Below are positions 37,527 to 54,178 of a stretch of 64,000 nucleotides of DNA, in pieces. Location: positions 4,481 to 68,480 of the forward strand of contig JBDRPO010000022.1 of the NCBI GenBank assembly GCA_043827085.1, given 5' to 3'. How positions within the stretch are numbered: the first letter of the stretch is position 1; each line of letters opens with the position of its first letter. The notes below the pieces were generated by a model that did no database searches, was not told the origin of the DNA, and saw nothing but the letters and a program-made list of their open reading frames with translations. The position numbers and the translations under genes were made by a program. This stretch comes from a bacterium (lineage in GTDB: Bacteria > Patescibacteriota > Microgenomatia > UBA1400 > UBA12108).

Positions 37527-37530
37527 AAAA

Positions 37531-37552
37531 CCCGGTGTACAAGGACACCGGG
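37531..37552. promoter_or_regulatory. Stem-loop immediately after the permease stop
   Basis: cccggtgt-acaagg-acaccggg, a perfect 8-bp stem. It is flanked by AAAAA on the 5' side, so it reads as hairpin+TTTTT on the minus strand. Only a weak U-tract on the plus strand. Confidence 0.4.
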
Positions 37553-37600
37553 TATGTTAAACAAAATAATACTAAAAAATCACTCACAAGTCAAAAAAAG

Positions 37601-37626
37601 GCTCGGCATACCGAAGCATGCCGAGC
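37601..37626. promoter_or_regulatory. Second stem-loop, about 22 nt upstream of the ABC ATPase start
   Basis: gctcggcat-accgaagc-atgccgagc, a 9-bp perfect stem. An A-rich spacer separates the two hairpins. Confidence 0.4.
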
Positions 37627-37648
37627 AGATTAAGGCCAATATACCAGT

Positions 37649-38401
37649 ATGATCAATCAAAGTCAAACAGCTATCACTTTTGATCAAGTGTCAAAACGCT
37701 ACTTCAAGCAGGGTACTCGTACCTTCAAGGAGATGCTCCATGCCCTCTTTATTCGAAGAGAGAAACCAGGAGAGTTCCTTTGGGCGCTCCGCAACATCAC
37801 ACTAAGTATCGCTCCAGGTACAACCTACGGAGTGATAGGAAAAAACGGTTCCGGGAAATCAACACTTCTAAAGTTGATTGCTAGTGTTAGTACACCCACA
37901 ACAGGAAAGACTCTGGTTCAGGGTCGAATCGCTCCCATAATCGAACTCGGGGCCGGTTTTCACCCAGACTTGACAGGGAGAGAGAATATCACCTTAAACG
38001 CCGCCATGCTCGGCATGACCAAAGCCGAAATCCAAGCGGCCACTCCTGCCATTATCGACTTTGCCGAGCTTGCGGGATTTCTCGACACTCCAGTCAAATA
38101 TTATTCGTCAGGCATGTATCTACGCCTGGCTTTTGCCGTCGCCATCCACGTCCACGCAGATATCCTGCTTATCGACGAGATCTTAGCAGTTGGCGATGAG
38201 GTTTTTCAGCAAAAATGTTTGGCTAAGCTAAACTCACTCAAAAAAGAGGGGAAAACCATTGTCTATGTCAGTCACAATATCCACAGTGTCTTAGATTTTT
38301 GTGATCGAGGATTATATCTTGATCACGGCAAAGTTAAAGAAGAGGGAAATATCATAAAGGTGGTTAAACATTATAGTCAGGACATGGAAAAAGAGCTATG
38401 A
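37649..38401 (+). CDS. ABC transporter ATP-binding protein (Wzt/TagH-like, with no C-terminal carbohydrate-binding domain)
   Basis: Walker A GKNGSGKST, signature YSSGMYLRLAF, Walker B ILLIDEIL. 250 aa. Confidence 0.85.
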   Translation: MINQSQTAITFDQVSKRYFKQGTRTFKEMLHALFIRREKPGEFLWALRNITLSIAPGTTYGVIGKNGSGKSTLLKLIASVSTPTTGKTLVQGRIAPIIELGAGFHPDLTGRENITLNAAMLGMTKAEIQAATPAIIDFAELAGFLDTPVKYYSSGMYLRLAFAVAIHVHADILLIDEILAVGDEVFQQKCLAKLNSLKKEGKTIVYVSHNIHSVLDFCDRGLYLDHGKVKEEGNIIKVVKHYSQDMEKEL

Positions 38402-39516
38402 GGATTGGGATCGACCTCTCGATGTTAGTCTATCAGGGCAGTGGGGTCGCAACCTATACCTTTAACGCCGCCAAGACACTTCTCAAATATGATCATAAAA
38501 ATGATTACGTCTTTTTCTACGCCTCACTCCGCCGCCCAGCCCACTTTACCTACCTTGCTGACCTGAAAAAATTGGGAGCAAAAATAGTCGAAGTTCCGAT
38601 CCCGAGTCGCCTCTTGCGGCTTATCTGGAATCGCCTACACATCTTGCCCGTTGAATGGTTTATCGGCAAAGTTGATGTTTTCTTCTCCTCCGATTACCTG
38701 CGCCCACCGCTCTTTCCTGGAACCAAGGGCATTACAACCGTCCATGACATGATTTGGCACAAGTTCCCTCAGTTTCATACTGGTGACATTATCGCTTCTC
38801 ATGCACGCAAAATGGCCAAACTCATTCGCTTTGGCGACACTATCCTTGTAGACTCCCAGAGTTCAGCTATCGACTTAACTACAATTTATCCCCAGATTCC
38901 TTCATCTCGTGTTCACGTCGTCTATCCCGGAGTAGATGATCGTTTTGCTCCGCAATCCCCTGCAACTATAAAAAAAGTCCTTACCAAATATTCCCTCCCT
39001 CAGGATCCCTACCTCATCTACATCGGTGCGATCGAACCGCGGAAAAATCTTGATCTTTCGATCCGTGTATTTGCCGATCTCATCAAACTCAAACCATACG
39101 GAAACTATAACTTCATTATTGCCGGTCGCGCTGGTTGGAAAAATGAGCACATCCACAAGCTTGTATATGATCTCAAACTAACTTCTCGCGTTCTCTTCCC
39201 GGGATTCGTGGAAGAAGGGGATATTCCCGCGCTCTATTCAGGCGCCAAAGCTTGTATGTATCTCTCAGCCTACGAAGGTTTTGGCTTACCCCCACTTGAG
39301 GCTGCGGGGTCCGGCACTCCCACCCTACTCTACAATAATTCATCACTCAAAGAGCTGTTCCCTTCTTCTTACCCATACGCCAAGGAGGGAAATGAGCTTA
39401 TGACTCTAATCCAACTTATCCAGTCCGGGCGGAAACTTCCCTTCACCCAATATGTCACCAAATTTTCGTGGCAGCATTTTACCCTGGAGTTTGATAAAAT
39501 AGCTACATCACTATGA
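38398..39516 (+). CDS. Family 4 (GT-B) glycosyltransferase
   Basis: YIGAIEPRKNLDL ... EGFGLPPLEAAGSGTP. ATGA overlap with the ATPase gene. Confidence 0.75.
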   Translation: MRIGIDLSMLVYQGSGVATYTFNAAKTLLKYDHKNDYVFFYASLRRPAHFTYLADLKKLGAKIVEVPIPSRLLRLIWNRLHILPVEWFIGKVDVFFSSDYLRPPLFPGTKGITTVHDMIWHKFPQFHTGDIIASHARKMAKLIRFGDTILVDSQSSAIDLTTIYPQIPSSRVHVVYPGVDDRFAPQSPATIKKVLTKYSLPQDPYLIYIGAIEPRKNLDLSIRVFADLIKLKPYGNYNFIIAGRAGWKNEHIHKLVYDLKLTSRVLFPGFVEEGDIPALYSGAKACMYLSAYEGFGLPPLEAAGSGTPTLLYNNSSLKELFPSSYPYAKEGNELMTLIQLIQSGRKLPFTQYVTKFSWQHFTLEFDKIATSL

Positions 39517-40859
39517 AAACTAAAACAGAAAACTGGAATATTGCCTTTGAGATTTCGCCCATACTGGCAGCTTCCGGTTCGTTTGGTGACAAATCTGGGG
39601 TCTATCGTATTAATTACAATTTAATCAAGTATTTAAGTAATTATTTTCAAGATCAAAATCTCCCTCACCAAATTTACCTTTATACCATTAACCCTCCCCT
39701 ACTTTTTAACATGAACATCGATCTTTACGAGCTCTTAAAAAGAGACAATATTCACCTGCTCAAGCTTCCCAACCTCACCAGTCGTTATCTTCACGAATAT
39801 CCAATTTTCAACCACATAGGCATTCGTTTTATCGCTAAGCTTGTGAATAAACTAATCTACAAGAAAATCCTCGAAAAAACTCTCTTTCAGCGCTACCTTA
39901 ATTCGCTCGCTGAAATCTTGCGCACAAATCATGTGGAAGTCGTTCATCACTCCGAAAGTGGTTTCGTTGATTTACAAGGTTTTGCTAACGTGATCCACAT
40001 CAACGATCTTGTCCCCATCAAGTTTCCTTTTTGGCAGCGCAAACTCACTGTCGATATCCACAAACGCAAACTTAGTTTTACCGAAAGCTCGGCACAGGGG
40101 GTAATTTGCATCAGCGAAAGTACCAAACAAGATCTACTAGGATATCTTCCCCGCTTGGCTCAATCAGATCGCCTCGTTAAAGTCATCTTCCCCGGCGCCG
40201 ATAATCACCAAGACACTATCAACATAAAATTGTCCTCGCTCAACCATATTATCGAGAAAAAGGGATATTCTGCGCTCAAAAAAGATAGATATTTCCTTTA
40301 TTTCGGCACGGTCGAGCCCCGCAAAAACATTTCGCTACTAGTAACGGTGTTTAATCACTTATTGACTAGTAAGACTTTTACTGACTTTAAACTTATATTA
40401 GTCGGTGGACGTGGTTGGGGTAAAACTTATGATGATCTACAACGTTTTATCGTTGAAAATTATCCAATCCCCTCAGAAAGCCCCATTATCTTTTTAGATT
40501 TTCTTAGTGACGACTATCTCGCTTGTTTAATCAAAAACGCCCGCGCGGTTGTCTACCCGTCGCTTTATGAGGGGTTTGGGTTACCTGTGGCCGAAAGTAT
40601 GAGACTCGGAACACCCGTCATTACCTCCAATGTATCATCTCTTCCCGAAGTGGCTGACGGTGCCTGCCTAACCGTTGATCCCCTAAATCCAGAAGCACTC
40701 GAATCAGCAATGATCAGACTCTATCAAGAAGATGCTCTGCGTTCTTCCCTTTCACGCAAGGGTCTTAAACAAGCCGCCAAATTTACTTGGGAAAATTGCG
40801 CCAAAGAAACCTATCAATTCTATGTTAGTTTGCTCCATCATTTAGGAGCCAATAAATGA
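39513..40859 (+). CDS. Family 4 glycosyltransferase, tandem paralog 1
   Basis: NIAFEISPILAASGSFGDKSGVYRINYNLIKYLS ... FGTVEPRKN ... EGFGLPVAES. 448 aa. Confidence 0.75.
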   Translation: MKTKTENWNIAFEISPILAASGSFGDKSGVYRINYNLIKYLSNYFQDQNLPHQIYLYTINPPLLFNMNIDLYELLKRDNIHLLKLPNLTSRYLHEYPIFNHIGIRFIAKLVNKLIYKKILEKTLFQRYLNSLAEILRTNHVEVVHHSESGFVDLQGFANVIHINDLVPIKFPFWQRKLTVDIHKRKLSFTESSAQGVICISESTKQDLLGYLPRLAQSDRLVKVIFPGADNHQDTINIKLSSLNHIIEKKGYSALKKDRYFLYFGTVEPRKNISLLVTVFNHLLTSKTFTDFKLILVGGRGWGKTYDDLQRFIVENYPIPSESPIIFLDFLSDDYLACLIKNARAVVYPSLYEGFGLPVAESMRLGTPVITSNVSSLPEVADGACLTVDPLNPEALESAMIRLYQEDALRSSLSRKGLKQAAKFTWENCAKETYQFYVSLLHHLGANK

Positions 40860-42202
40860 AGAAGGTTTGGAATATTGCTTTCGAGATCTCTCCGATTCTG
40901 GCTGCCTCCGGCTCCTTCGGTGATCGCTCAGGTGTTTATCGGATCAACTACAACCTGATCAAATATCTCAGCGAATACTTTGTAGCCGAGAAATTACCTC
41001 ACCAAATCTATGTATATACGTTAAATCCTGCGCTCAACTACAATATCGGTCTCGACCTCAATGCCTTACTGGGTAAAAGCAACATTCACTTTCTCAAAAT
41101 TCCTTATCCTCACGGCAAGTATCTGCAAGAGTATCAGATTTTTGACCACGCCGGTATTCGTTTTATCATCAAGTGGATTGATCAAGTAATCTGGCGACCG
41201 ATTATCGAAAACGTAGTGTTCGCCCGTTATCTTTATCTAATCTCTCAGGAGTTTAAAGCCAAGCAAGTCAAGGTAGTCCATCATTCCGAAAGTGGATTTG
41301 CTTATATCAAAAACGTTTTAAACATTATTCACATCCATGACATGGTTCCCTTTATGTTTCCTTTTTGGCAGCGACCAGTTACGATTGATATTCACCGCCG
41401 CAAAATCAAATTTGCCACCAAAAAGTGTAACGCCGTTATTTGCATCAGCAAACACACCGTCAAAGATTTTGTGGAATACGCCAAGCAATATAAGCTCCCC
41501 TGTCCTCCTCACCGCGTTATATATCTAGGACCGGAACAATTTCCACCTGGTGACAAAAATAATATTAGTGACATCAACAATTCGCTCCGTGCCAGTGGTC
41601 GTAGAATTATTCTCCCCAAAAAGTATTTTCTTTTCTTCGGGACCATCGAACCAAGGAAAAACACTACAATGCTCATCTCAGTTTTTGACAAGCTCAAAAA
41701 AGCTGGCAAACTGGCTCAGTTCGATCTAGTTTTAGTCGGCGGCAAAGGTTGGGGTAAAGTTTATGACAACACCAAAGATTATCTCCAAGAAAACTATCCC
41801 AAATCTATTGCTAGTCCCATTATTTTACTTGACTTCTTGAGCGATGAATATTTACACACGTTAATCACCAATAGTTATGCTGTCGTGTACCCTTCATTTT
41901 ACGAGGGTTTCGGTCTACCGGTCTTAGAAAGCATGCAATACGGTATCCCCGTGATTACCTCTAACAACTCTTCGATCCCTGAAGTAGGAGAGGACGCGTG
42001 TCTCTACATCGACCCCACCAGCCCAGACTCGCTCGAAGGTGCCTTACTTACTCTAGCTTCTTCACCCAAGCTTCACAAGCAACTTGCACTAGCCAGCAAA
42101 CGTCAAGCTGCCAAGTTTAATTGGCAATATACAGCTTTCCAGACTTATCAGTATTATTGTGAACTTCTCAAACCCAAACCTACTTCAAGTATATTTCACT
42201 AA
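40856..42202 (+). CDS. Family 4 glycosyltransferase, tandem paralog 2
   Basis: Same length (448 aa) and near-identical N-terminus (NIAFEISPILAASGSFGDRSGVYRINYNLIKYLS) as the upstream gene. FGTIEPRKN ... EGFGLPVLES. Confidence 0.75.
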   Translation: MKKVWNIAFEISPILAASGSFGDRSGVYRINYNLIKYLSEYFVAEKLPHQIYVYTLNPALNYNIGLDLNALLGKSNIHFLKIPYPHGKYLQEYQIFDHAGIRFIIKWIDQVIWRPIIENVVFARYLYLISQEFKAKQVKVVHHSESGFAYIKNVLNIIHIHDMVPFMFPFWQRPVTIDIHRRKIKFATKKCNAVICISKHTVKDFVEYAKQYKLPCPPHRVIYLGPEQFPPGDKNNISDINNSLRASGRRIILPKKYFLFFGTIEPRKNTTMLISVFDKLKKAGKLAQFDLVLVGGKGWGKVYDNTKDYLQENYPKSIASPIILLDFLSDEYLHTLITNSYAVVYPSFYEGFGLPVLESMQYGIPVITSNNSSIPEVGEDACLYIDPTSPDSLEGALLTLASSPKLHKQLALASKRQAAKFNWQYTAFQTYQYYCELLKPKPTSSIFH

Positions 42203-44405
42203 ATTGTGCCGACAACAAGTTGCTATCTGTGCTAGTCGGATCCACCACCTTAGGCTGCCAAGAATCTGCTGCTATGATATGTATGGTATTTATCCCTGTC
42301 TTAAGCATTGTTCGTGGCACCAACAACTGATTATCTTTCCTAGTTGTCTCCAAATTCACGCTCCCAAGAAATTCGCGGTTCAGATATATCTTAATTAGCT
42401 GAGTTTTATGGTAACTTGCTCCCTCCAAATGGAGAGTCATCTCTTTTTTATCAGCTACTTTTAGTAGAATCTGTGCCGTTGAATTCATCCAGCGGAATCC
42501 CTGGTCACGTCCATACCAATTTCCCGCGATCTGTAGTTCGTCCCCCGGCTCTCCTATTTTTACCGACAGATACTCCTGATCAGTTGGTTCTCTTGACCAC
42601 AGCTCCGCCACAGACTCCTCCTTTATTTTTTTGTATCCCAGTTTAGGTAGTTCTGTCACAATCTGCGTGTACCCTGGCGTGGTGGGGTATAAGATAATAT
42701 ATTTGATATCCAAAAAATCTACCGCTCGCCTAGCCTCATTTTCATTTAATTCCTGCCATTTACTTAAATCAGTCCGGTCCAGTCCTCCATTATTTACTAC
42801 TTGCGGATCGATCATCCTCCCTACGTAGCCGAGCCACGCATTCTGTTGATAGTAAGCAAATTTATAACTGGGTACCCTCCCACTATAGCCAGCCAACATC
42901 GGCTTACCATGAATTAGCTGCCCAGCAATGAAATTTAGCCCTTCAGTATTACCAAAATAAATAAAACCATCTCGCATTGCGCTCGGGATCTCCTGTACCA
43001 CCCCACCACCAGGATCTTTTTTGATAAACTCGTATATTTGATAAGGTAAAGGAGTAGGGGTGGCCAAAGAGTACTTGATTGAATGATCTAGTATCAAGAC
43101 TGCTAGTAATCCCACAAAGACGAGCGCCTTACCTTCTTTTGTCAGTCGCTTTCCCCATGACTGCCAAAGATAACCAATCACAATATACGAAACAAATATG
43201 TACCCAATCGCCAGTCTCCCTGGACTACGAATATTGCCCATAAAGGGTAAGTAGTGAAATAACGCAAAGGGGAGGGGAACCACCAGCTTTATTCCCTCTT
43301 GGAGTTCCTTCGTCCATCTGCCAGCCACGTGGAGGAACGGCCCTAGGGTGAGACTCCACAGCCAAAACCCAGCAAACAACCATGGCGCTACCTGCTGCTT
43401 TGCCTTTCCGAAGTTCTTCTTTCTGATTATGAGATATCCAAAGATTCCCAGAGTGACCAGGATCATGATTCCAGGATAGGTATAGTTTTCAAAAATACCC
43501 TTAGCAAATGCCCAGTGCTGATCTGTCCAAACTGCTATCCCCCGTAAATATCGACTGTAATAGCTAGGGATAAACATCCCAAACAGATCCGTCGAAAATT
43601 GCAGCGCTCCCGCCCAGCCCTCAGTTTTGGGTAAGCCGCTAAACAAAGTCACTTGTCTCAAAGTCACGAGCCATTGGGCAATCATGGCGACAATTGCTAC
43701 TCCTCCCACCACAATCATCCGCCAACTATTCTTAACTACCTCAACCACTTCATCGCGCCGGCAACACCCATAGAATCCACCCAAGAGTCCAGCCGACAGC
43801 AGCAAAGTCACAAAATAGTACAAATTATGGTACAGCGCCATAGCCAGGAAAAAGGCTGTCCCGAGTGCTCCCAACACTCGCTTTCCCAATTTTCCCCTTC
43901 CCGTCATCGTGAGTGCTGAGAGGTAAAACCACGGGAAAACATAGATCGACATATAGGTCAAATGCCCCATCCGGGGCAATAGAAATGTCGTATACGCAAA
44001 CGCCAGTCCCAAAATACCCGCAATACCCACGCCAATTTTCAACTTTCTCAGGAGTAAGTACATCCCCACACTAGCCGCGTAGATGGACAAAGCTACGGTG
44101 ATCGACATGGCTTGGTGCGTTGATAGCCATGGACGTAAGGCAATAAAATACAAAGCGTTGCCGGAATCAGTCGACGCAAACTCTGTCCCAAACGGATAAA
44201 AAGCGCTGCTCCTCCACGCGAAAGGATTTTTCCCAGCCACAATATTTTGGTATGCCTGCTCGATCCCCCACTCAGTGGCAAGTACTTCCCCGTACCTGGC
44301 TTCCACAGTCGAAGTATCAAATTTAAGTTCATGCCAAAATGATTTGTAGTACCACAAGTTCACTATCAAATATATGAGTAACACTATCCAGGTTGATTTT
44401 TTCAT
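42180..44405 (-). CDS. Very large polytopic membrane protein with a C-terminal ~230-aa soluble domain, paralog family D (YfhO-like GT-C candidate)
   Basis: 741 aa. N-terminal TEWGIEQAYQNIVAGKNPFAWRSSAFYPFGTEFASTDSG aligns with TEWIVETGYQKIIHGQNPFAPTTKLFYPFETKIALNDPG of 44405..46036. Last gene of the minus-strand operon. Confidence 0.55.
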   Translation of the reverse strand: MKKSTWIVLLIYLIVNLWYYKSFWHELKFDTSTVEARYGEVLATEWGIEQAYQNIVAGKNPFAWRSSAFYPFGTEFASTDSGNALYFIALRPWLSTHQAMSITVALSIYAASVGMYLLLRKLKIGVGIAGILGLAFAYTTFLLPRMGHLTYMSIYVFPWFYLSALTMTGRGKLGKRVLGALGTAFFLAMALYHNLYYFVTLLLSAGLLGGFYGCCRRDEVVEVVKNSWRMIVVGGVAIVAMIAQWLVTLRQVTLFSGLPKTEGWAGALQFSTDLFGMFIPSYYSRYLRGIAVWTDQHWAFAKGIFENYTYPGIMILVTLGIFGYLIIRKKNFGKAKQQVAPWLFAGFWLWSLTLGPFLHVAGRWTKELQEGIKLVVPLPFALFHYLPFMGNIRSPGRLAIGYIFVSYIVIGYLWQSWGKRLTKEGKALVFVGLLAVLILDHSIKYSLATPTPLPYQIYEFIKKDPGGGVVQEIPSAMRDGFIYFGNTEGLNFIAGQLIHGKPMLAGYSGRVPSYKFAYYQQNAWLGYVGRMIDPQVVNNGGLDRTDLSKWQELNENEARRAVDFLDIKYIILYPTTPGYTQIVTELPKLGYKKIKEESVAELWSREPTDQEYLSVKIGEPGDELQIAGNWYGRDQGFRWMNSTAQILLKVADKKEMTLHLEGASYHKTQLIKIYLNREFLGSVNLETTRKDNQLLVPRTMLKTGINTIHIIAADSWQPKVVDPTSTDSNLLSAQFSEIYLK

Positions 44406-46036
44406 TATTCACGCCTCCACCAGGAATATCCTTGTACTTGTCTCACTTCTTCTGCTCCCACCTCATTTAACATATTCTCTATTTGCTGGGTATATGGTTC
44501 GTTTCGCTTCACTATCACATCAGTAATATTTAACAAATCGAGTTCACTCTTTACTGTTTGAGTCGTCCCTGCATACTCTGTCACGACCGGCTCTTTGGGT
44601 AGCTCAGTAAACCGATTGTAGTTGCCGTGATCGGTAATTTTTAGGATGTGAGATATCCAGCTTAGTTTATCGTAGTAATCAAATACTTGTGTATCCACCC
44701 GCGCCAAATACCCTCCCATGATGCTGCGGTGATGTATGAGCTGTCCGTACATCGGGTTTAGTCCGTATATGAAACCACGATACTCAAAACCATCACGCAG
44801 GGCAAACGGGATCTCCATCACGACTCCACCCTCAGTACGCCCAAGAGTTTCATATATCTCCATCGGCATCTCATCCGCTGCTCTGTAGGGGATACTATAG
44901 TGTTGCGTAAGCAAAAATATCACACCCAAGCCAACCACGATCCACTTCTTTGTTTTCGTTAAAAGTGTCGCGACAGCTATACATGCAAAAAATATCATTG
45001 CAGGGATAAATCTATCTGGTGCGCGCAAACTCTCTAGTCCTGGTAGGCTCCTAAGTAATAAAAAGGGTAGAGGAAAAAACACCTCCACTCCGTCCAGGTT
45101 AATATGCCATCTCCCCAATACTTTCAAAAAAGGCCCCATGGTCAAAATCGCAAACCACATACTACTGATCATTGCCACGCCGATTTTCTTGTACTTTATA
45201 AGCACATAGCCCAAGAGGAGTAGTAATACTACCCCCCAAGTTTTGGGCGAGGCAAGCTCTACCAAATCTTTCGCTAGCTGGACTGCTCCCCCATACCCAA
45301 ACACTCTAGTCGTCTCTCGCCTCATCAACTCATCTCTTACACTCACAAGCCATGGGCTCAGTACTACCACCATTGCTGTCAAGCCAGCCAACATCTGGCG
45401 ATAGTTTACTTTTATATACGCATAACCAAAGAATGCGCCATAAATTACTCCCGCCATCATTATGCTTACGCCATAATAAAAATTCCCGTACCAAAATAGG
45501 GCCGCCACTATCCCAGCTCCCACCCAGTTATTTTTATAAATCAATAAATAAATCCACGGAAAAAGATAAAGACAGAGGTAAGTATAGTGCCCCCGTACTT
45601 CCCCACTTACATAAGGCATGTATGTATACACGAGCGCTAAAAGTATGGCGAGTTCACTTTTCTTGACCAGTGTACTAAGCAGTAAATACATCGCTAGACT
45701 AGAGAGAAAAAGTGAAAGTAGCACCGCTCCCATCATAGCTTGGTGTATCCCTAGCCACGGACGAAACACGGCGTAGGGAACTACCAGCAACATCCCAGGA
45801 TCATTTAATGCGATCTTAGTTTCAAACGGGTAAAACAATTTTGTCGTTGGCGCAAATGGATTCTGACCATGGATGATCTTTTGGTAACCAGTCTCTACGA
45901 TCCACTCAGTGATCCGTCCATCAGTCGTAGATAGATTATTACCAGGCGCATTACTCACTAGCTCTTTAACAAATCTCCAGTTAAAGAAGATATTGATACC
46001 AAGCAACACCAAAACCATCCACCAAACTCTTTTCAT
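44405..46036 (-). CDS. Large polytopic membrane protein, paralog family D
   Basis: 543 aa. Same N-terminal block as 42180..44405. Its stop overlaps the start of the downstream gene by 1 nt (TAATG). Confidence 0.55.
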   Translation of the reverse strand: MKRVWWMVLVLLGINIFFNWRFVKELVSNAPGNNLSTTDGRITEWIVETGYQKIIHGQNPFAPTTKLFYPFETKIALNDPGMLLVVPYAVFRPWLGIHQAMMGAVLLSLFLSSLAMYLLLSTLVKKSELAILLALVYTYMPYVSGEVRGHYTYLCLYLFPWIYLLIYKNNWVGAGIVAALFWYGNFYYGVSIMMAGVIYGAFFGYAYIKVNYRQMLAGLTAMVVVLSPWLVSVRDELMRRETTRVFGYGGAVQLAKDLVELASPKTWGVVLLLLLGYVLIKYKKIGVAMISSMWFAILTMGPFLKVLGRWHINLDGVEVFFPLPFLLLRSLPGLESLRAPDRFIPAMIFFACIAVATLLTKTKKWIVVGLGVIFLLTQHYSIPYRAADEMPMEIYETLGRTEGGVVMEIPFALRDGFEYRGFIYGLNPMYGQLIHHRSIMGGYLARVDTQVFDYYDKLSWISHILKITDHGNYNRFTELPKEPVVTEYAGTTQTVKSELDLLNITDVIVKRNEPYTQQIENMLNEVGAEEVRQVQGYSWWRRE

Positions 46037-46203
46037 GACTCTATTATAGCTTAAGACTCATGCTACAATTTACTTTGATATGTTGAAATCTTGGCTGATC
46101 TTTACTCTGGTAATGCTTGTCGCTTTCAGTCTTATCTACCGTGTTAATACCCATTGGGACCGTGTAAGAATAGTCCCGACCAGCATGTTTGCTCAGGAGT
46201 CAC

Positions 46204-48099
46204 CTATTCCCCACTAATTCTCTTGTACACAAACATCATCGGAGACTCCTCCACAAATTCAAATTTATCTCTCACTTGATCATAAATAGTGATGAGTGTA
46301 TGTTCGCCGATATTTGGTGTGTTTCTATACTCCTCAGCTTGGCGCAGCACCCTTTTGTCCACAAACAAGTATTTAGGCTCCCTGCGGTATAGCTCGATCA
46401 CATCTTTTAGTTCCTGTTTGGTGTAGAGCGTAGCATGTAGATAGTAGTAGTCAGCTAGATTTACTCGCTCGGCCTGCATTAAAAGCACATGGTCAAAGTA
46501 GCCGATGATAGCCACCCGCTCCTTGTTGGGGGTATATTTTTTGATCGCGTCCGCGCTCTCCATGAGCTCTGTGATAGGTATAGTAGGTACCGCTGTGTTT
46601 TCGACCGCTATCAACCTATTCTTTGGCGGGTAATTAAAGTTGGGGTCATACTTCATTAGTCGAAAGTCACTTAGTCGGTGTTTTTCTAGCTTTACTCCCC
46701 ACTGCACAAATTTAGTAAGGGGAAGTGCAAAAATTGCGATCGAGATCAAAACTACGAGCTGTTTGCCATAAGACCGCGTCCACACCGCGCGCACCAAATA
46801 CTGATATAAATAAATCAAAATTATGATCGCTGGGATGCTGACCGCCGCCAAGTCACTTAAGTTTTGCTTGCCCAGATAGTAGCGGAATATACCATAACCG
46901 TAAATAGATAACATAGTCAATACCGGCAAATCTCTTAGTGGTAGTCCTCCCTTGACGTATTTTCGCACCATGACACTCAAGATCACTATGCCGTATATCG
47001 CTATCGGCCAATACGCATACCAGGTTGTTAGTGCCAGGCCTTGACGCTGCAAAAACCCAGCGTTAAATAGTTGAGCGTAGTAATAGTATTGACTCCAGTC
47101 AGGCCATTTAGAGGCTACAATATATGTGTACAAGCTATAGATCGCCATGATAGTACCGGTGTAGCCAACAACCTGTATGCCTTGTCGCACCCCCAGCTTC
47201 CCTCTCAAGTAGGCTATGGTAAAGAGTGCTGCCCAGTAGCTCAAAATCAGTGGGATTCCCGATTCAAGGTTCCACAGTACCCCTACTGCCAGGCTTAGTT
47301 GGAGTAGTCTCCAAGCCCACTTTTTTTGTGTCCTACTCCACCACAAAAAAAGCAAAATCGCAGGCATTGCAGGCAAAAATCTCCACACACTCCCCCCTGG
47401 CCACAAAAAGAACTCCGAGGGAAACAGAGTCGGGAAGACTCCATAAAAATGCACACTAGTCGTCACGACAATCCCGAGTAACGCCAGGGTTTTCGACTTG
47501 GTCAAAACTCGCATAATCAAATACACGGCCATGTACTCGCAGACCCCCATAATCATAGAGATCAAATGCACGTTTGGATGCGAGAAGTACAGTCCAGCTT
47601 TAAAGATCCATGAAGTCAGGAAGATATTCAAAAATCCGTACTGGGCTTTGGTATCTACAAGAAGAATTTTTCCATTTAAAACATCATTGAGTGGTCCAGT
47701 AATAAAATTGAGATGATGATAGTTGTAAAAAAATTGGTAAAAAGCGTTATAACTAAAATTCACCACTAAACCAATAATTATCAAAGTAAAGAAACCTATC
47801 TCTTTCGCTCCTGGCCAGTTGATTTTGCCAGGAGTTTTTGGCCATAGTTTACGTATAGGCTCCAATTTCTCGCGCAAGATTAAATGAAAACCCCTCCACA
47901 ATCCATAAGTTACTGTGGGGATATAGAGTAGCGCTACAGGCCAAAAGTATTTATACGGAGTAAGTGTAACTGTCCGACTAGCTACCCACGGCAAAAATGT
48001 GTCGAGCGTTACTTGGTCAACTATAGGGTAAGGGTAGTTTACCGCCAAATACCAAAAACTCAGTCCCGCCAAGCTTAGTGCCACCAGAAATTTATTCAA
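46204..48099 (-). CDS. Large polytopic membrane protein with a C-terminal soluble domain, unknown family
   Basis: 631 aa. About 12 TM helices, then a ~170-aa hydrophilic tail (NYPPKNRLIAVENTAVP...). Overlaps the upstream gene by 8 nt. Confidence 0.5.
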   Translation of the reverse strand: MNKFLVALSLAGLSFWYLAVNYPYPIVDQVTLDTFLPWVASRTVTLTPYKYFWPVALLYIPTVTYGLWRGFHLILREKLEPIRKLWPKTPGKINWPGAKEIGFFTLIIIGLVVNFSYNAFYQFFYNYHHLNFITGPLNDVLNGKILLVDTKAQYGFLNIFLTSWIFKAGLYFSHPNVHLISMIMGVCEYMAVYLIMRVLTKSKTLALLGIVVTTSVHFYGVFPTLFPSEFFLWPGGSVWRFLPAMPAILLFLWWSRTQKKWAWRLLQLSLAVGVLWNLESGIPLILSYWAALFTIAYLRGKLGVRQGIQVVGYTGTIMAIYSLYTYIVASKWPDWSQYYYYAQLFNAGFLQRQGLALTTWYAYWPIAIYGIVILSVMVRKYVKGGLPLRDLPVLTMLSIYGYGIFRYYLGKQNLSDLAAVSIPAIIILIYLYQYLVRAVWTRSYGKQLVVLISIAIFALPLTKFVQWGVKLEKHRLSDFRLMKYDPNFNYPPKNRLIAVENTAVPTIPITELMESADAIKKYTPNKERVAIIGYFDHVLLMQAERVNLADYYYLHATLYTKQELKDVIELYRREPKYLFVDKRVLRQAEEYRNTPNIGEHTLITIYDQVRDKFEFVEESPMMFVYKRISGE

Positions 48100-50257
48100 A
48101 GCTAATCCTCCGAAAGTCGACTGCTAACTCGCGCTTGTCGCCTGAGGCTGCGTCTGGATTTTCAACTTTGTCAAACTCAAAGCTTACTAGATGCTTACCT
48201 AGCTGTACCTTTGGTAGCTCGATTGTATATTCACTCCATTCTCTACTCAAAGCTAACTTTCTGCATAACTCATCGTTTACAAATACCCGCACTGTCTGTC
48301 CGTCGATAAAGGATGTAGCTGTTATCTTGAGTTGAGTTTTCGTCATATTTTTCTCAGTTACCCACCATATACTTGCTGTCTTTTCATTGGCCCAGCGGTG
48401 ATCGTTCTCAGGGGTACTCCAGCCATCAATCAAAATCGTATCGTCATACTGAGTTTTCCCAAACTCTATCGTTTGCAACTGCTTGGAGTTCTTTAGTAAA
48501 CAATCATCACTCAAACAGCGTCTCCCCAACTTATAAAATCCATTTTCCCACACAACCTGCTCAAACAACAATTTTGGTGGTCGATACCACAGCTCTTTAG
48601 ATACCAAAATTAAAGCATCTTCTGGCACTATGCCATTTTTAAATTCCTGCAAATTTGCACTAGATACTAGCTCTTTTTGCGGGTAAAGAAAATATTCAGT
48701 CCATATTTGTCGCCAGTAATACCCCATCCCCTCCACCACTTCACTCAAATAAATTGGCTCTGTAATACTTGGATTATTTGCCAGTTCAGACAGAGACATT
48801 AGCGACCTGTCCACTGTAATGTGGTTATATGTAAAACGTCTTATCAGTCTCCCCCCCGACCACAAAGATGCCACAATGAGTATCACCCCCACTCCCAACC
48901 CAAGGTAGCGTTTTTTGTCAGCAATGTCTATCCAGCCAGCCACGAACCACGGGAGTACCACAGGGAGTACGTACGTCACCACTCTGTTATAGGCAAAAAA
49001 GTTGTTATTCCCCCAGGTTGTCCAAACTATCATCGGCAAATACAATCCTACCATTACCATAATCATCCCTCGCCCGCTTGCCTTCCACATTCCTCTGGCC
49101 AAGATGACCAAAATCAATCCCGATAAACTCCAGGCCACTATCCATGGCAGGGCAGGGGAAGTATGAATATCCCATAGCCCCAGTAACTCTACGGGGTTAG
49201 CAAAGGGATTAATTTTACGGAAAATATCCCAGCCTATTGGACCATTCACTAGTTGTGCTTGCTGGATATCAAACATGATCGAGTGGATGGCTGCCACACC
49301 ACCCAAAAGTAGAGTAGTAGTAGCGACCCGCCACATCGTTTGCCAGTTACGGCTGATGAGTAAGTAGATCCCAAACGGAGCCAGCAAAAAGATAGAACCT
49401 TCATGGTACGAGTAAAATACACTTGCCACAATGATTCCAATCAGAAAGTCATTTCTCTCTGATTTTTTGCTAAAAACATGGATCCAAAATAACAGCTGCA
49501 GTCCCCAGAAAAATACTTGTCCTGCGAAATTATGGTAGAGCATATACAACAAATTCGCATTTGCTGCCGTCAATCCGGCAGTGAGGATCAGTCCGAGCTT
49601 ACTCTCTTTCCCAGTCATAACGACTAGGAGTACATAAACCAGCGGGATCATCCAGGCGAATAGTAAGACTTGGAATAGGTAGGTGAATTGATACCCCCTG
49701 AGTCCCGTTACCTCCAATAGGTATCCCATCGTGATCGGTGTGCCCCACCTATACCCAATTCGAATTAGATTACTGATTCCGTTGTAGTCATACTTTCCTT
49801 CATGACCATCCACCAAAAGACGAGAAAATATTGTGCCCTTTTGCAAGTATTCAGGTACCGTAGCATAGATTATGGCGTCATTATTCCCCAGCGACACAGT
49901 GGTGAGGATTTTGTCATTTCTCCACAGTGGAGCCAAATTTACCAAAATCGAGACTCCAACCACACTCGCCAGGATCACCTCTCTCCATCCGATCGTCACT
50001 CTGATTTTGTCGTAGAACCAGGTTTTGAGGCTTAGGGTCGCAAGTACCAAGGTCAGGGGGATAGTGCTGTAGGCAATAGGTATCCCCATCAAGCTTAAAA
50101 TGGTGAGACCTACACTCACCCCCACGATTGTGTACCAAGGGGCCAGCCAAAAGGCAAAAAAGGCAATTTTCTTAGGCGTTAAATAGCTAGCGATACCATA
50201 ACCGAGGAAGTACATTAAAATTGTAATACCTGCTGGATACAAAAATATTTCTTTCAT
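48092..50257 (-). CDS. Very large polytopic membrane protein with a C-terminal ~250-aa soluble domain, paralog family E
   Basis: 721 aa. TTVSLGNNDAIIYATVPEYL block shared with TTLSLGNLDPVTYASGGEFL of 50254..51933. Confidence 0.5.
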   Translation of the reverse strand: MKEIFLYPAGITILMYFLGYGIASYLTPKKIAFFAFWLAPWYTIVGVSVGLTILSLMGIPIAYSTIPLTLVLATLSLKTWFYDKIRVTIGWREVILASVVGVSILVNLAPLWRNDKILTTVSLGNNDAIIYATVPEYLQKGTIFSRLLVDGHEGKYDYNGISNLIRIGYRWGTPITMGYLLEVTGLRGYQFTYLFQVLLFAWMIPLVYVLLVVMTGKESKLGLILTAGLTAANANLLYMLYHNFAGQVFFWGLQLLFWIHVFSKKSERNDFLIGIIVASVFYSYHEGSIFLLAPFGIYLLISRNWQTMWRVATTTLLLGGVAAIHSIMFDIQQAQLVNGPIGWDIFRKINPFANPVELLGLWDIHTSPALPWIVAWSLSGLILVILARGMWKASGRGMIMVMVGLYLPMIVWTTWGNNNFFAYNRVVTYVLPVVLPWFVAGWIDIADKKRYLGLGVGVILIVASLWSGGRLIRRFTYNHITVDRSLMSLSELANNPSITEPIYLSEVVEGMGYYWRQIWTEYFLYPQKELVSSANLQEFKNGIVPEDALILVSKELWYRPPKLLFEQVVWENGFYKLGRRCLSDDCLLKNSKQLQTIEFGKTQYDDTILIDGWSTPENDHRWANEKTASIWWVTEKNMTKTQLKITATSFIDGQTVRVFVNDELCRKLALSREWSEYTIELPKVQLGKHLVSFEFDKVENPDAASGDKRELAVDFRRISFE

Positions 50258-51933
50258 TGCAAGTCCTTTGCAAGCATCAATTTATCCACGTTGATTAACT
50301 CATACCCGTTCTCAGGCGTATTATGCAAAGTCACAAACGGTCCATCTCCCCGCCCAGTGAGCGGTAAATTGGCTCGTGTATAAAAAGGAACCTCGCGCAA
50401 AAAATGCTCTTCCCACACCCGCTGCCACAAATCATATCCTTCTGTCATCACATCTGTATTGTAAATGGGACTTTCCTGTATGGGCAGATTCTGCAATTCT
50501 GCTATCTCACGTCCTACCAATCGGTGGTGGTTAAAGTATTGGATCATAGTGCGGTAAGACGACCGTAAGGTCAAAACTCCCAGTATCACCATTACCACGA
50601 TGCTAATCTTGTAACTCTTGATCTGCGCAAGTCCAATAGATACAAGTACCACAAGTAGAAACATCCCATAGCCTAACACACGGTTATAGACAAAATAATT
50701 ACTAATTATTAAACGATAAAAAACCAAAAAAACACCAAAAACTAAAATGTATGCACCGATCAATTTTTTCTGCTTGATTTTTGCAAATCCCCATACAGCG
50801 ATGAGTAATAGAGGCAAGCTCACAATCAGGTCAACAATTAGTGGCAAATCCCGAGAATAATTCAGGTTATATATCCCGAGCAGTTCCCATAGTGACCCAA
50901 AGCGGATCCTCTCCCAGCCGATAAAAGTTGTGTTCGTGGTCACTTTGATTAAGCGAATTATTTGGTTTACACTATTTACCATTGTGATCGGAGTTAGTGC
51001 TAAAGCGTAAGAGATACTTATCCAGATATTTTTATATTGAGTAAGCAATAGGGGCAACAGCAACAGCATCATGCCATCTGGATATACCGAGGAGGTGGTA
51101 GCAATAGTTACTCCCATCCACCACGCTTTGCCAGGAGAGTCACCAAGAGCCAAAAGAATTGTCAAAACTATCAGTCCCCCGTAGACAAACTGTGGCATAA
51201 AAGCGTGGAACTGCCAGTACATGAGAGTAGAGTTAAGTCCAAAAAGTAGCGTAGTACCTACTAGCAAGCGTATATCATCGCGTCCCAGTAGCTTTTTGCT
51301 GAGTAAGTAAATTAGCGGCAGGGTCAGCGCTGTCAAAACTGCCAGCAATATCGTATAAACCTGGTATACCTGCTGATGCAAAATCACTGCAAAAAAACTT
51401 AAAGTGAGTGGCACTCCGTACCGAAAACCGTAGTGGAGTATGTCTGCGATAGACCAAGTATATGGGTGCTGCATATCTATTGCACTACCTTGGATCAGGC
51501 TATACTCCCGCAAAAACTCTCCACCACTTGCGTAAGTCACAGGATCTAGATTACCCAGGGACAAGGTGGTGGGGTAGCCAACCTTACCCCACATTGGGTA
51601 AAGATAGAAAACTATCACGCCGGTGACAAAGAGCAGCAAGCGCCAGTCGCTCATTGACCATTTAGAGCTCCACCCATACTTAATTAGCGCAAAAATATTA
51701 ATCAGGCTTGCGCAAAATAGTACGGCGTAGCTCCCGTACTTCATTGGGATATTTGCCAAACTCAAAGCACCAGATAGCAAGACAACTAAGCAAACTCCCC
51801 ACCAAGGCACGCTCCATTTCTCCTTGCGTAGCGGTGTAAGTCTATTTACCCCCCATCCCAGAAACATTAATAACCCCAAAATACCAAGTGTCAATAAACT
51901 AATTTGCAGCATAACTATGATTATACTATCCAT
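50254..51933 (-). CDS. Large polytopic membrane protein, paralog family E. First gene of the minus-strand operon.
   Basis: 559 aa. Shared block as above. An AT-rich divergent promoter region (51934-51979) separates it from the plus-strand PP-loop gene. Confidence 0.5.
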   Translation of the reverse strand: MDSIIIVMLQISLLTLGILGLLMFLGWGVNRLTPLRKEKWSVPWWGVCLVVLLSGALSLANIPMKYGSYAVLFCASLINIFALIKYGWSSKWSMSDWRLLLFVTGVIVFYLYPMWGKVGYPTTLSLGNLDPVTYASGGEFLREYSLIQGSAIDMQHPYTWSIADILHYGFRYGVPLTLSFFAVILHQQVYQVYTILLAVLTALTLPLIYLLSKKLLGRDDIRLLVGTTLLFGLNSTLMYWQFHAFMPQFVYGGLIVLTILLALGDSPGKAWWMGVTIATTSSVYPDGMMLLLLPLLLTQYKNIWISISYALALTPITMVNSVNQIIRLIKVTTNTTFIGWERIRFGSLWELLGIYNLNYSRDLPLIVDLIVSLPLLLIAVWGFAKIKQKKLIGAYILVFGVFLVFYRLIISNYFVYNRVLGYGMFLLVVLVSIGLAQIKSYKISIVVMVILGVLTLRSSYRTMIQYFNHHRLVGREIAELQNLPIQESPIYNTDVMTEGYDLWQRVWEEHFLREVPFYTRANLPLTGRGDGPFVTLHNTPENGYELINVDKLMLAKDLQ

Positions 51934-51979
51934 CAGGCTTGTGTTATAGTAATTTCATTACCACAAATAAAAAGTAAGT

Positions 51980-52657
51980 ATGATAAGTAAACAAAAAGTT
52001 AAAGAAGCTCAAAAAATTATTCGTCAAGCTCGCTCTAAATGGGATGATGACAAGATAGCGGTAGCTTGGACTGGCGGCAAAGACTCTACCGTCATCCTGA
52101 GTCTAATCCGTGAAACTTTTAACGGCAAAATCCCCTTTAGAGTCATTTTCAACGACTCGACTATCGAATTTCCCGAAGTATACGAGTTTATCAAAAAAAC
52201 TACTAAGGATTGGAATCTAAAACTCATTACGATTCCTCATTTGCCCGAAGATCTCCAAGCTTATCAAGACGCTGTCTCCCCGGAAGACAAAATGGAAATC
52301 ATGCGGATCGCCAAAATTAACGCGATCAATTATGCGATCACCGAATACAAGCTTCAAGCGTTCATGTCAGGTATCCGCGCCGACGAACACGAATCGCGCA
52401 GCGAAGAAACTCACTTTTCACCACGCACTTCCCACATGCGTGTCCACCCAATTCTCAATTTTACCCTTACTGATATTTGGGACTACATCAAAGAATTTGA
52501 AGTTCCCTATGTCAAGCTCTACGACCAAGGCTATAAATCGCTTGGAGAAGCACCTTTTACGAGTCCTGTCTCAGATCCCAATGCTCCCGAACGAGCGGGA
52601 AGGGAGGCCACCAAAGAAAAAACCATGAAACGTCTGCGTGATCTCGGTTATTGGTAA
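51980..52657 (+). CDS. PAPS-reductase-fold PP-loop protein (PF01507-like) lacking the redox cysteines
   Basis: WTGGKDSTV PP-loop, RADEHESR, ILNFTLTDIWDYI and YDQGYKSLGEAPFTSPV align with the CysH/CysD family. The family's QGY.SIGC.PCT cysteines are replaced here (C to E, C to F), and there is no C-terminal Cys pair. Confidence 0.7.
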   Translation: MISKQKVKEAQKIIRQARSKWDDDKIAVAWTGGKDSTVILSLIRETFNGKIPFRVIFNDSTIEFPEVYEFIKKTTKDWNLKLITIPHLPEDLQAYQDAVSPEDKMEIMRIAKINAINYAITEYKLQAFMSGIRADEHESRSEETHFSPRTSHMRVHPILNFTLTDIWDYIKEFEVPYVKLYDQGYKSLGEAPFTSPVSDPNAPERAGREATKEKTMKRLRDLGYW

Positions 52658-52666
52658 TACTGAGTT

Positions 52667-54178
52667 ATGTACAAAAATCTTGTCATTATCTCCATCGATT
52701 CTCTCCGTGCCGATGCCACCAACTTTTCTCACCAGGCAATTCATGGTCGTGCAGAACCACGACTTAAAACTCCCAACCTAGACAAGCTCGCAGGTCAAGG
52801 CTCATACATAGAAAAAGCTTATTCCACCAATACCTATACCACCGCTGCTCACGCTTCCCTCTTTACCGGCCGTTACCCTTACCAACATCAAGTCCGGGCC
52901 TTCCTTGATTTCCACAGCACTTTAAATCCCACAACACCTACCCTTGCTGAGATTCTGCACAATCAAGGTTTTCAGACATTTTTTTATTCCGATGTCCCAG
53001 AATTATTTTCCTCAAACGACATTTGGCGCGGTTTTAGAGTCAAAACTAAAAATAATACTAACTGGTTCTTTAACTCACTAGAAGAAGCCAAGAAAGACCG
53101 GAATTTTATCTTCCTCCACCTTTTTGATGTTCACGAACCATACTTATATATCGAAGATCAAAACCACAAACCCAATGCCAATGACGATTACTACGACTCA
53201 GTGACAACCCTGCAGAAGAAACTGGGATATAAATCCAAATTGAATCCCAAGAAAAATCCCCACGATTTCTGGCAAGAAATTCGTCAACATTTTCGCGCGG
53301 AGCATCTCAAAGAGTATCCTTATCTTTACCCCCTGTATCTTGCGGGAGTAAATTACTTTGATAAATACCGACTGCCATATTTTTTGAATCAATTTGACCA
53401 TCTGGGCTACACTAGTGACAATACTCTCTTCATTTTCCTGAGTGATCATGGCGAAGGACAAACCACTTTCGATACCAATAATATTATTAAATTTAATCAC
53501 GGGGGTGACATTACCGAAGACGTTCTCAGAATATTTCTGACTATTTCTGAGTCAGGTATTAATCGCAAGCTCATGTCCATCGCCGATCTCTCTAATCTAG
53601 CATTGTCTTTACTAGGAGTCCCATACCCCAAACCAATTGAATATTCACTCAGCCGCGCCGTTATTCCTCCGCATCATCTTTACGCCGAATCACACTACAA
53701 TATTGTCGGCGACAAACTGGCTCATGGATTAACTGATCAAGGTACTCTCGCGCAAATTACCTCACACGTCTTGGGTAGCCGGGCATTTATCACCGATTCT
53801 CACAAATATATTCTTCATGGTGAGCCGGAATACCTCGCCTCTTCCCATTCAACCGAACCTGCCAGCGTCGTGATTGATCGCTTATTCCAGTCTATCTTCT
53901 ATCGATTTTCCGATTCGACTTCCAAGAAATCATTACTCGGCGCCCATGCTCATTCTCCACTTGAACCCGATGCCCTTGCGTACAAACTTCTGATTTCTCC
54001 CGAAAAAACTCTCAAGCCTTTTACCGAAAGCTTTGAAACTACCGACCTAGCTGATCATCCAATTGACGACACGTCCTGGACAATCCAAGCCAAATTTCAT
54101 TGGCTATCTGCTCTCACAACCCACGTCCTCCATCCCCGCCGTCATTATCGTTTTTCCAAACTAATCAATAATTACTGA
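52667..54178 (+). CDS. Alkaline-phosphatase-superfamily phosphodiesterase/pyrophosphatase (ENPP type I phosphodiesterase-like), with a ~150-aa C-terminal extension
   Basis: Metal site ISIDSLRAD. Thr nucleophile block TNTYTTAAHASLFTGRYPYQHQ matches the ENPP pattern T-x3-H-x-S-x2-TG-x-YP-x2-H. HLFDVHEPY and FLSDHGEG second-metal motifs. Not a Cys/Ser-type sulfatase, because the CxPxR motif is absent. Confidence 0.65.
   Translation: MYKNLVIISIDSLRADATNFSHQAIHGRAEPRLKTPNLDKLAGQGSYIEKAYSTNTYTTAAHASLFTGRYPYQHQVRAFLDFHSTLNPTTPTLAEILHNQGFQTFFYSDVPELFSSNDIWRGFRVKTKNNTNWFFNSLEEAKKDRNFIFLHLFDVHEPYLYIEDQNHKPNANDDYYDSVTTLQKKLGYKSKLNPKKNPHDFWQEIRQHFRAEHLKEYPYLYPLYLAGVNYFDKYRLPYFLNQFDHLGYTSDNTLFIFLSDHGEGQTTFDTNNIIKFNHGGDITEDVLRIFLTISESGINRKLMSIADLSNLALSLLGVPYPKPIEYSLSRAVIPPHHLYAESHYNIVGDKLAHGLTDQGTLAQITSHVLGSRAFITDSHKYILHGEPEYLASSHSTEPASVVIDRLFQSIFYRFSDSTSKKSLLGAHAHSPLEPDALAYKLLISPEKTLKPFTESFETTDLADHPIDDTSWTIQAKFHWLSALTTHVLHPRRHYRFSKLINNY

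Follow-up and report, generated by a model that had tools for sequence, protein, structure and literature searches.

A tandem array of predicted GT-C glycosyltransferases in a glycan-synthesis island of a Microgenomates bacterium

An array of five genes for large membrane proteins

The window analysed here comprises 64,000 nt (positions 4,481 to 68,480 of contig JBDRPO010000022.1, assembly GCA_043827085.1) from a bacterium of the Microgenomatia (Patescibacteriota). It contains five consecutive minus-strand genes which encode polytopic membrane proteins of 559, 721, 631, 543 and 741 amino acids. They are referred to as E-short, E-long, U, D-short and D-long, in the order of transcription (Table 1). 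A first-pass annotation, made from the sequence alone, had described this row of giant polytopic proteins with soluble C-terminal tails, and both genes and architecture were recovered: each protein has about 11-14 hydrophobic helices and a tail of 101-296 amino acids after the last transmembrane helix, for which a location outside the cell is predicted. Full-length conserved homologs from metagenomes exist for all five proteins, so the open reading frames (ORFs) are genes and not chance ORFs. Named homologs belong to Candidatus Gottesmanbacteria, Roizmanbacteria and 'Patescibacteria group' metagenome-assembled genomes (MAGs). NCBI records of window proteins are hypothetical proteins ABII21_04340 and ABII21_04350.

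Table 1. Positions of the array genes, their domains and further features of the window.
Feature	Position	Strand	Description and evidence
E-short	50254-51933	minus	559 amino acids; E family, polytopic, without C-terminal β-sandwich; first in transcription order
E-long	48092-50257	minus	721 amino acids; membrane domain of predicted GT-C fold, α/β domain, C-terminal β-sandwich
U	46204-48099	minus	631 amino acids; TTG start; polytopic; large unnamed family, probably GT-C-like
D-short	44405-46036	minus	543 amino acids; membrane domain and α/β domain, without C-terminal β-sandwich
D-long	42180-44405	minus	741 amino acids; predicted GT-C membrane domain (about 11 transmembrane helices), α/β domain, C-terminal β-sandwich; last in transcription order
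β-sandwich of E-long, residues 596-721	48095-48472	minus	Resembles carbohydrate-binding modules; hhalign to the D-long C-terminus, Foldseek
β-sandwich of D-long, residues 614-741	42183-42566	minus	Resembles carbohydrate-binding modules; Foldseek; common to E-long
Small ORF in the U/D-short gap	46080-46217	plus	45 amino acids, one hydrophobic helix, unannotated; translation MLKSWLIFTLVMLVAFSLIYRVNTHWDRVRIVPTSMFAQESPIPH
TATAAT, −10-like box	46048-46043	minus	6 nt upstream of the D-short ATG
TGCTACAAT, −10-like box	46061-46069	plus	10 nt upstream of the small-ORF ATG
Second U-family protein	58318-60462	plus	714 amino acids; BLASTP to U 24% identity, E 2e-6; U hidden Markov model 476 bits
ABC-2 permease, ABC ATPase (Wzm/Wzt-like), three GT4	36753-42202	plus	Unit convergent to the array; Pfam
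GT2 adjoining the second U gene	60484-61422	plus	312 amino acids; NCBIfam PgfS 220 bits (3-304 of 308), ArnC 162 bits
GT2 fused to a GtrA/DPMS transmembrane domain	1757-2920		

The genes had been described as chained by overlaps of 1-8 nt. This applies to three junctions, with overlaps of 4, 8 and 1 nt, whereas a gap of 167 nt (46037-46203) separates U from D-short. In a second assembly of the same genome, U has 626 amino acids (start 5 codons downstream) and D-long 734 amino acids (7 codons downstream); two of the three overlaps therefore hinge on the choice of the start codon. An Rfam scan of 41500-52500 detected no RNA family.

Scans of the five proteins with Pfam and NCBIfam gave no match at E ≤ 0.01. 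Sequence searches against the PDB with single proteins and with family profiles yielded noise only (SPW, a cytochrome bd subunit, an acetylcholine receptor subunit) and none of the Emb/Aft chains. D, E and U are three sequence families without a model in any database. The two internal paralog pairs noticed earlier were confirmed by an all-against-all BLASTP of the window ORFs: D-long and D-short share 30% identical amino acids (E 7e-71), E-long and E-short 27% (E 2e-30).

A predicted GT-C fold of the D and E families

AlphaFold2 models of D-long and E-long, based on family alignments, had mean predicted local distance difference test scores of 87.5 and 89.3 and a predicted template-modelling score of 0.87 each. 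They were compared with the PDB by Foldseek, and every full-length match among the top 50 of either model was a GT-C enzyme. D-long matched AftD (6wbx, E 5.7e-8; 6wby), STT3 (9n9j_I, 6ezn_F, 6s7o_A), AftA (8if8_B), EmbA/B (7bvc, 6x0o) and ArnT (5ezm). E-long matched STT3 (8b6l_I, E 2.7e-5; 8agc_A; 6ezn_F), EmbB (7bvf_B), AftD (6wby, 6w98), AftA, AglB (3wak) and ArnT (5f15). The top 50 of both models contained no transporter (MFS, RND, MMPL or other) and none of the GT-C_B class, that is, Wzy, WaaL O-antigen ligase or SEDS, for which the Pfam scan also gave no match. By these models, D-long and E-long have a GT-C fold, and D-short and E-short have it by homology. This agrees with the GT-C reading of both paralog families in the first-pass annotation. 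Membership in the Emb/Aft, YfhO or Wzy sequence families, which had also been considered, was not borne out: no window protein matches those models (for Emb/Aft, GT-C_AftD and Arabinose_trans of Pfam), and the likeness is at fold level only. GT-C enzymes have a domain of 7-13 helices and an extracytoplasmic domain, which catalyses the addition of sugars from lipid-linked donors (PMC11127046); the D and E proteins fit this description.

Transmembrane segments were set by hand from AlphaFold2 helices and hydrophobicity, and the orientation was derived from the positive-inside rule. For D-long, 11 transmembrane helices are predicted with the N-terminus inside and the C-terminus outside (19 lysines and arginines in 48 amino acids inside, 9 in 116 outside). 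E-long would have 14 helices and both termini outside (17 in 57 inside, 4 in 64 outside), and U 13 helices with the N-terminus inside and the C-terminus outside (23 in 78 inside, 10 in 157 outside). Invariant polar residues of these three models are located in predicted outside loops or transmembrane helices, none in inside loops. The candidate active-site acidic residues (position 40 and D80 in the D family, D127 in the E family) are in predicted outside loops.

An acidic residue at position 40 of D-long as well as D80, H148, D273, R393 and R397 are kept in 20 of 20 D-type proteins from all subfamilies. D-short is among them, with D39, D79, H148, D255, R336 and R340 as equivalents. In the alignment of the E family, the row of E-short holds every invariant column, including the aspartate of the SLGN-D motif (D127 in E-long numbering), which sits in a long loop after the fourth transmembrane helix. 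Since the family-conserved residues are kept in D-short and E-short, both short paralogs look catalytically competent.

Profile comparisons connect the D family with known families. It was aligned by hhalign with the three PTPS_related (PF10131) proteins of the window (89.6% probability, E 1.9e-6, 306 columns), and a D-short ortholog on a Gottesmanbacteria-related contig exceeds the Pfam threshold for YfhO (29.8 versus 28.5 bits, E 2.7e-7). None of the five window proteins matches YfhO (PF09586) or PTPS_related at E ≤ 1. Judged from these profiles, the D family is a distant relative of YfhO/PTPS_related and not a member. The Pfam model GT-C_AftD gave a weak match (E 0.03) in two of 42 D homologs and none in the window proteins. 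Some D homologs came with precomputed PF19830/DUF6311 labels, which the Pfam copy used did not reproduce and which were not relied on. The literature search found no relevant papers on DUF6311 or on GT-C enzymes in bacteria of the candidate phyla radiation (CPR).

The E family was almost confined to Microgenomates in the searches run (22 protein clusters, 18 genome loci). Orthologs of E-short with 593-613 amino acids are present in nearly every related array. Two arrays of relatives also include ORFs of 313-326 amino acids with a weak match to the E core (33-34 bits; L008:4187-5167 and L009:8982-9923). These may be E-family fragments or a distinct small partner.

The U family

The family of U is large: a profile search gave 3,358 representative clusters at E ≤ 1e-3, of which 916 reached E ≤ 1e-30. 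No Pfam model matches its membrane core. Relatives carry additional Laminin_G_3 lectin-like domains (9 of 35) and TPR domains (3 of 35). A narrow U alignment gave no signal with D or E. After broadening, the alignment matched the E family (hhalign 87.5% probability, E 3.6e-6, 319 columns) and the PMT_2 proteins of the window (86.9%, E 4.2e-6, 309 columns). U is probably GT-C-like, on weaker evidence from these profiles than for D and E. The aspartate of an 'LLVD' motif (D149) occurs in both consensus sequences but lies outside the columns with at least 90% conservation.

The window encodes a second U-family protein (Table 1). The C-terminal ~200 amino acids of this paralog are 39-40% identical to a stand-alone ORF of 204 amino acids (63312-63926, minus strand), which no Pfam family matches; the soluble domain of the paralog thus also exists as a separate gene, 3 kb away. 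In two distant genomes, ORFs of about 205 amino acids adjoin U homologs (L006:11941-12552, minus strand; L007:11991-12626, plus strand). The two ORFs are relatives of one another (29% identity, E 6e-28) but unrelated to the 204-amino-acid ORF of the window and to any C-terminal tail of the array.

A shared C-terminal β-sandwich

Residues 614-741 of D-long and 596-721 of E-long are homologous (hhalign 99.4% probability, E 1.5e-21) and fold into a β-sandwich in the models. Both short paralogs are without this domain. Foldseek matched the domain of D-long to the carbohydrate-binding domain of BcsB (9fmt) and to the carbohydrate-binding modules (CBMs) CBM36 (1ux7_A, target-normalised TM-score 0.58), CBM35 (2w3j) and CBM6. 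The domain of E-long matched CBM35 (2w3j), CBM36 (1w0n, 1ux7), CBM6 (8j3x) and BcsB. The matches across both models, which concern the last ~125 residues, also include CBM35 (2w47, 4qb2) and CBM6 (1gmm). The E-values were about 1e-3 and the target-normalised TM-scores 0.5-0.6. A resemblance of the C-terminal domains to CBMs had been suggested as a test; it was observed for the two long proteins. As modelled, the β-sandwich of the long forms probably holds an acceptor glycan.

The same β-sandwich (72-81 bits) is part of a 348-amino-acid protein with a Hexapep (acyltransferase) domain, encoded in L001, L002 and L016 (7080-8126 in L001) and in L017 (4828-5874). Its gene is located directly upstream of the D/E arrays of these relatives.

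D-short differs from its nearest orthologs in length. Proteins of 693 amino acids (L027:7923-10004) and 712 amino acids (L026:2583-4721) share 52-55% identity with D-short and have ~125 extra C-terminal residues; the tail of the L026 ortholog gave a weak match to the hidden Markov model of the C-terminal domain (22 bits). D-short ends exactly at the linker preceding this tail (...QGYSWWRRE), and the deletion ends exactly at the start of D-long. According to this alignment, D-short has lost a β-sandwich-like C-terminal domain kept by its closest orthologs, by a deletion in the genome of the window.

Conservation of the array in Microgenomates

Hidden Markov models of the D core, the E core, U and the C-terminal domain were run on 25 loci. 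Same-strand arrays of two to seven D/E genes are present in Roizmanbacteria, Gottesmanbacteria, Daviesbacteria and related MAGs. The first-pass annotation had called an all-membrane operon unusual. Instead, these arrays are a conserved feature of Microgenomates, and embCAB of mycobacteria is a precedent for such an operon. Locus L003 has the order D'752, Ds619, Dl748, Es603, E736, E739, E738 (s, short; l, long; numbers are amino acids) and L002 the order Ds, Dl, Es, Dl, El, Dl'. Ds, Es, Dl, El is the order in L010, L015 and L019; L010 and L019 have additional long forms. Most arrays not truncated at a contig end contain a single E-short-type gene together with several long forms and, often, one D-short-type gene. 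The public records of the array-bearing MAGs L015, L018, L021, L023 and L024 are titled 'uncultured Gammaproteobacteria bacterium' and are probably mislabelled.

The two closest relatives, L027 and L026, share 67-74% amino-acid identity with the window. L027 has the exact order of the window: Es556, El722, U654, D693 and Dl743, followed by convergent GT4 genes and an ABC transporter. The 8.1-kb contig of L026 covers the portion U, D712 and Dl741. Convergent GT4 genes follow the array also in L003 and L001. More generally, D/E arrays adjoin sugar-nucleotide genes and, where the flanks were read, convergent GT4 genes.

Tandem pairs had been taken as a sign of recent duplication. Identity between the paralogs is only 27-30%, whereas each protein shares 33-74% with orthologs from other genomes. 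D-short reaches 330 bits against Ds of L003 versus 233 bits against its own D-long, and E-short 303 bits against an ortholog elsewhere versus 117 bits against its own E-long. Because the window proteins are closer to foreign orthologs than to the neighbouring paralogs, the duplications are old.

A small ORF and the number of transcription units

The gap between U and D-short contains a small ORF on the opposite strand (Table 1). Counterparts of 52 amino acids in L027 (about 7724-7922) and 50 amino acids in L026 (about 2447-2582) are alike in position and orientation, and the L027 copy is a gene call in one source. Over 38 codons, the differences at codon positions 1/2/3 are 17/9/22 between window and L026 and 19/14/24 between window and L027. 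This pattern, 3>1>2, is coding-like. The single-helix protein of 45-52 amino acids may either assist the GT-C enzymes as a small membrane partner or have no relation to them.

Two −10-like boxes lie between the small ORF and D-short and face both ways. The window and L027 share GCTATAAT, located 6 nt upstream of the D-short ATG. A box like TGCTACAAT, (T)ACAAT, precedes the ATG of the small ORF by 10 nt in three of three genomes (window, L027 and L026). The boxes at 46043-46069 are putative back-to-back promoters. The argument for an internal promoter relies on their conservation; a generic promoter and terminator scan gave no support, with 17 promoter-like sites versus 21.2 expected from shuffled sequences and thus no enrichment. 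Since the gap holds a conserved opposite-strand ORF and conserved −10-like boxes in both directions, a single five-gene operon, as proposed earlier, is doubtful. The sequence argues for probably two transcription units, one with E-short, E-long and U and another with D-short and D-long.

The glycan-synthesis island around the array

Nearly the whole window is a glycan-synthesis island. It encodes GDP-mannose dehydratase and epimerase, a DegT aminotransferase, about nine GT2 and five GT4 glycosyltransferases and a Wzx/MOP-type flippase. About 16 genes are of GT-C type: two D, two E, two U, four PMT_2 and two BLAST paralogs of these, two PTPS_related and one BLAST paralog, and one GT87. The absence of a cytoplasmic catalytic partner, stated in the first-pass annotation, is correct within the five genes, but such partners are abundant elsewhere in the window. 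The PgfS and ArnC matches of the GT2 beside the second U gene cover the full length, and both are below the equivalog cut-offs. No genes of the decaprenyl-phospho-arabinose pathway (DPPR synthase, DprE1/E2) were matched among the window ORFs scanned, which were a subset of all.

Divergent from the array, 46 nt from its start, 51980-54178 (plus strand) encodes a protein with a PAPS-reductase domain (225 amino acids) and a protein with a sulfatase/phosphodiesterase domain (503 amino acids). The pair, which also adjoins the array in L027, hints that the same glycan may be modified by sulfation or phospho-transfer.

In multi-component transmembrane glycosylation, a GT-A enzyme makes a C55-P-sugar, a flippase transfers it, and a GT-C enzyme adds the sugar to an acceptor outside (PMC8035078). 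The components encoded in the window match such a system.

Proposed function and alternatives

The five proteins are likely extracytoplasmic GT-C glycosyltransferases which use polyprenyl-phosphate sugars to elaborate a surface polymer of the adjacent GT4/ABC-transporter pathway, with the CBM-like domain of the long forms holding the acceptor. The reaction sequence may start with cytoplasmic GT2 enzymes of the PgfS/ArnC/DPM1 type, present in the island, which would load single sugars onto polyprenyl phosphate. A flippase, for which a GtrA-domain fusion and a Wzx-type protein are candidates, would then bring the lipid-linked sugar to the other side of the membrane. On the outer face, each GT-C enzyme would transfer the sugar to the acceptor by means of the conserved acidic, histidine and arginine residues, all in loops predicted to face outward by the AlphaFold2 helices and the positive-inside rule. 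Judged from conserved synteny, the most likely acceptor is a polymer for which the convergent GT4 genes provide the synthesis and the Wzm/Wzt-like ABC transporter the export. Different members of the array would add different sugars or linkages.

Several observations weigh against this interpretation. The TM-scores of the Foldseek matches to GT-C structures are modest (0.3-0.5). The membrane domains of D and E did not match each other in hhalign, where the C-terminal domain alone is common, and the E profile matched neither PMT_2 nor PTPS_related. The link of U to GT-C consists of two profile comparisons of ~87% probability. The CBM assignment, taken from the models, is at the level of the common β-jelly-roll fold, with E-values of ~1e-3. 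The Hexapep protein with the same domain fits poorly with a strictly extracytoplasmic glycan-binding role, unless it is secreted.

The acceptors may be proteins instead of polysaccharides, with the array encoding OST-, PMT- or PgfM-like glycosyltransferases (OST, oligosaccharyltransferase) for S-layer, pilin or other secreted proteins. The best Foldseek matches of E-long are STT3 subunits and AglB, and the GT2 beside the second U gene has, among named families, its best match in PgfS, a component of protein O-glycosylation in streptococci. An 'O-glycosylation flippase' model is among the matches of the Wzx-like protein, and the window encodes several PMT_2 proteins. However, the CBM-like domains of the long forms, as in AftD, Emb and GT136, point to glycan acceptors, and the arrays are consistently paired with GT4 genes and, in the window and L027, with an ABC-2 exporter, a typical setting of polysaccharide synthesis. 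D-long matches the folds of AftD, AftA and Emb equally well or better, and no OST sequence model was matched. Protein glycosylation is an unlikely function of the array. A transporter, permease or other non-enzymatic function, which the first-pass annotation had named as the outcome that would refute its reading, is in accordance with large polytopic proteins that have no annotation at the sequence level, but it is highly improbable: the full-length structural matches are all GT-C enzymes, and the conserved polar residues cluster in outward-facing loops, not within the membrane.

A different division of labour is conceivable within the array. Short and long paralogs may form heterodimers in which one subunit catalyses and the other, non-catalytic one binds the acceptor. 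Heterodimers of GT-C paralogs are known from EmbA-EmbB and Pmt1-Pmt2, the two genes of each pair in the window overlap by 1-4 nt, and the arrays of most relatives hold both short forms without and long forms with the C-terminal domain. Small GT-C enzymes have been speculated to need a separate acceptor-binding partner (PMC8035078). Yet E-short and D-short keep the family-conserved residues and neither is pseudoenzyme-like, genomes differ in the order and number of their short and long genes (e.g., Ds-Es-Dl-El in L010, L015 and L019), and D-short of the window became short only by the recent deletion. Such a pairing is distinctly unlikely. Extracytoplasmic elaboration of a surface polymer by GT-C enzymes is the preferred interpretation. 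An extension of it is possible, though doubtful: the D/E arrays, with or without U, may be an extracytoplasmic assembly line that builds a whole polymer domain from lipid-linked monosaccharides, like mycobacterial arabinan synthesis, by specialised short and long enzymes which are possibly heteromeric, with the microprotein of 45-52 amino acids possibly as an accessory. If true, no such system would have been described before in CPR bacteria, and up to three new GT-C families would be defined for CAZy.

Significance and comparison with known systems

The genomes of CPR bacteria (Patescibacteria) are tiny and the cells live attached to others, which makes a central role of surface glycans in their lifestyle likely. 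For a CPR bacterium with a small genome, at least 64 kb of glycan synthesis including ~16 GT-C-type genes is a very large investment. The analysis provides a predicted fold and a plausible mechanism for three previously unannotated families, of which U alone numbers over 3,000 representative clusters. In addition, the shared CBM-like domain is defined, and the gene array is established as a conserved feature of the lineage. D, E and U are specific candidates for GT-C families new to CAZy and for work on the cell envelope of CPR bacteria; they do not reveal a new kind of system.

Emb/Aft enzymes of mycobacteria use a lipid-linked monosaccharide as donor, and embCAB is an operon of paralogs. AftD, AftA and EmbA/B/C are the best or near-best structural matches (6wbx/6wby, 8if8_B, 7bvc/7bvf). 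They share with the window proteins a GT-C membrane domain followed by extracytoplasmic domains, including CBM-like β-sandwiches, and tandem paralogous GT-C genes; CBMs occur in Emb and AftD (PMC11127046). In contrast, the window proteins are shorter, with 543-741 amino acids versus 1,040-1,310 residues in the matched chains, and lack sequence similarity to them. No acyl-carrier-protein partner or decaprenyl-phospho-arabinose pathway genes were identified, and the host is a CPR bacterium, not an actinobacterium.

The YfhO/PTPS_related systems (CsbB-GtcA-YfhO, GtlA-GtcA-GtlB, GtrA/B/C) are connected by the D profile and by the D-short ortholog that passes the YfhO threshold. The window also encodes ArnC/PgfS-like GT2 enzymes, a GtrA domain and a Wzx-type protein. 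The mechanism of CsbB-GtcA-YfhO-type systems has been described (PMC8035078, PMC5836110). These known systems have one GT-C enzyme each, whereas five genes are in a row in the window and up to seven in relatives, and the E family is without a detectable sequence link to any named GT-C family.

GT136 ORF12 of Citrobacter youngae O1 resembles the long forms by its architecture of GT-C domain and C-terminal CBM. It acts outside the cytoplasm on a ready-made polymer, and polymers of the ABC-transporter pathway can be modified in this way (PMC11127046). It differs in its pentofuranose donor, derived from phosphoribosyl pyrophosphate, and in its MATE flippase, neither of which was identified among the window ORFs scanned. 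STT3, AglB and PglB have a GT-C core with a C-terminal extracytoplasmic domain as well; they provide the top Foldseek matches of E-long (8b6l_I, 8agc_A, 6ezn_F, 3wak) and strong ones of D-long. The difference is that they show no match at the sequence level and that the C-terminal domain of the window proteins is CBM-like. Compared with these systems, D, E and U probably add new families, so far without a sequence model, to the GT-C superfamily; the type of enzyme is familiar, and so is the type of gene cluster.

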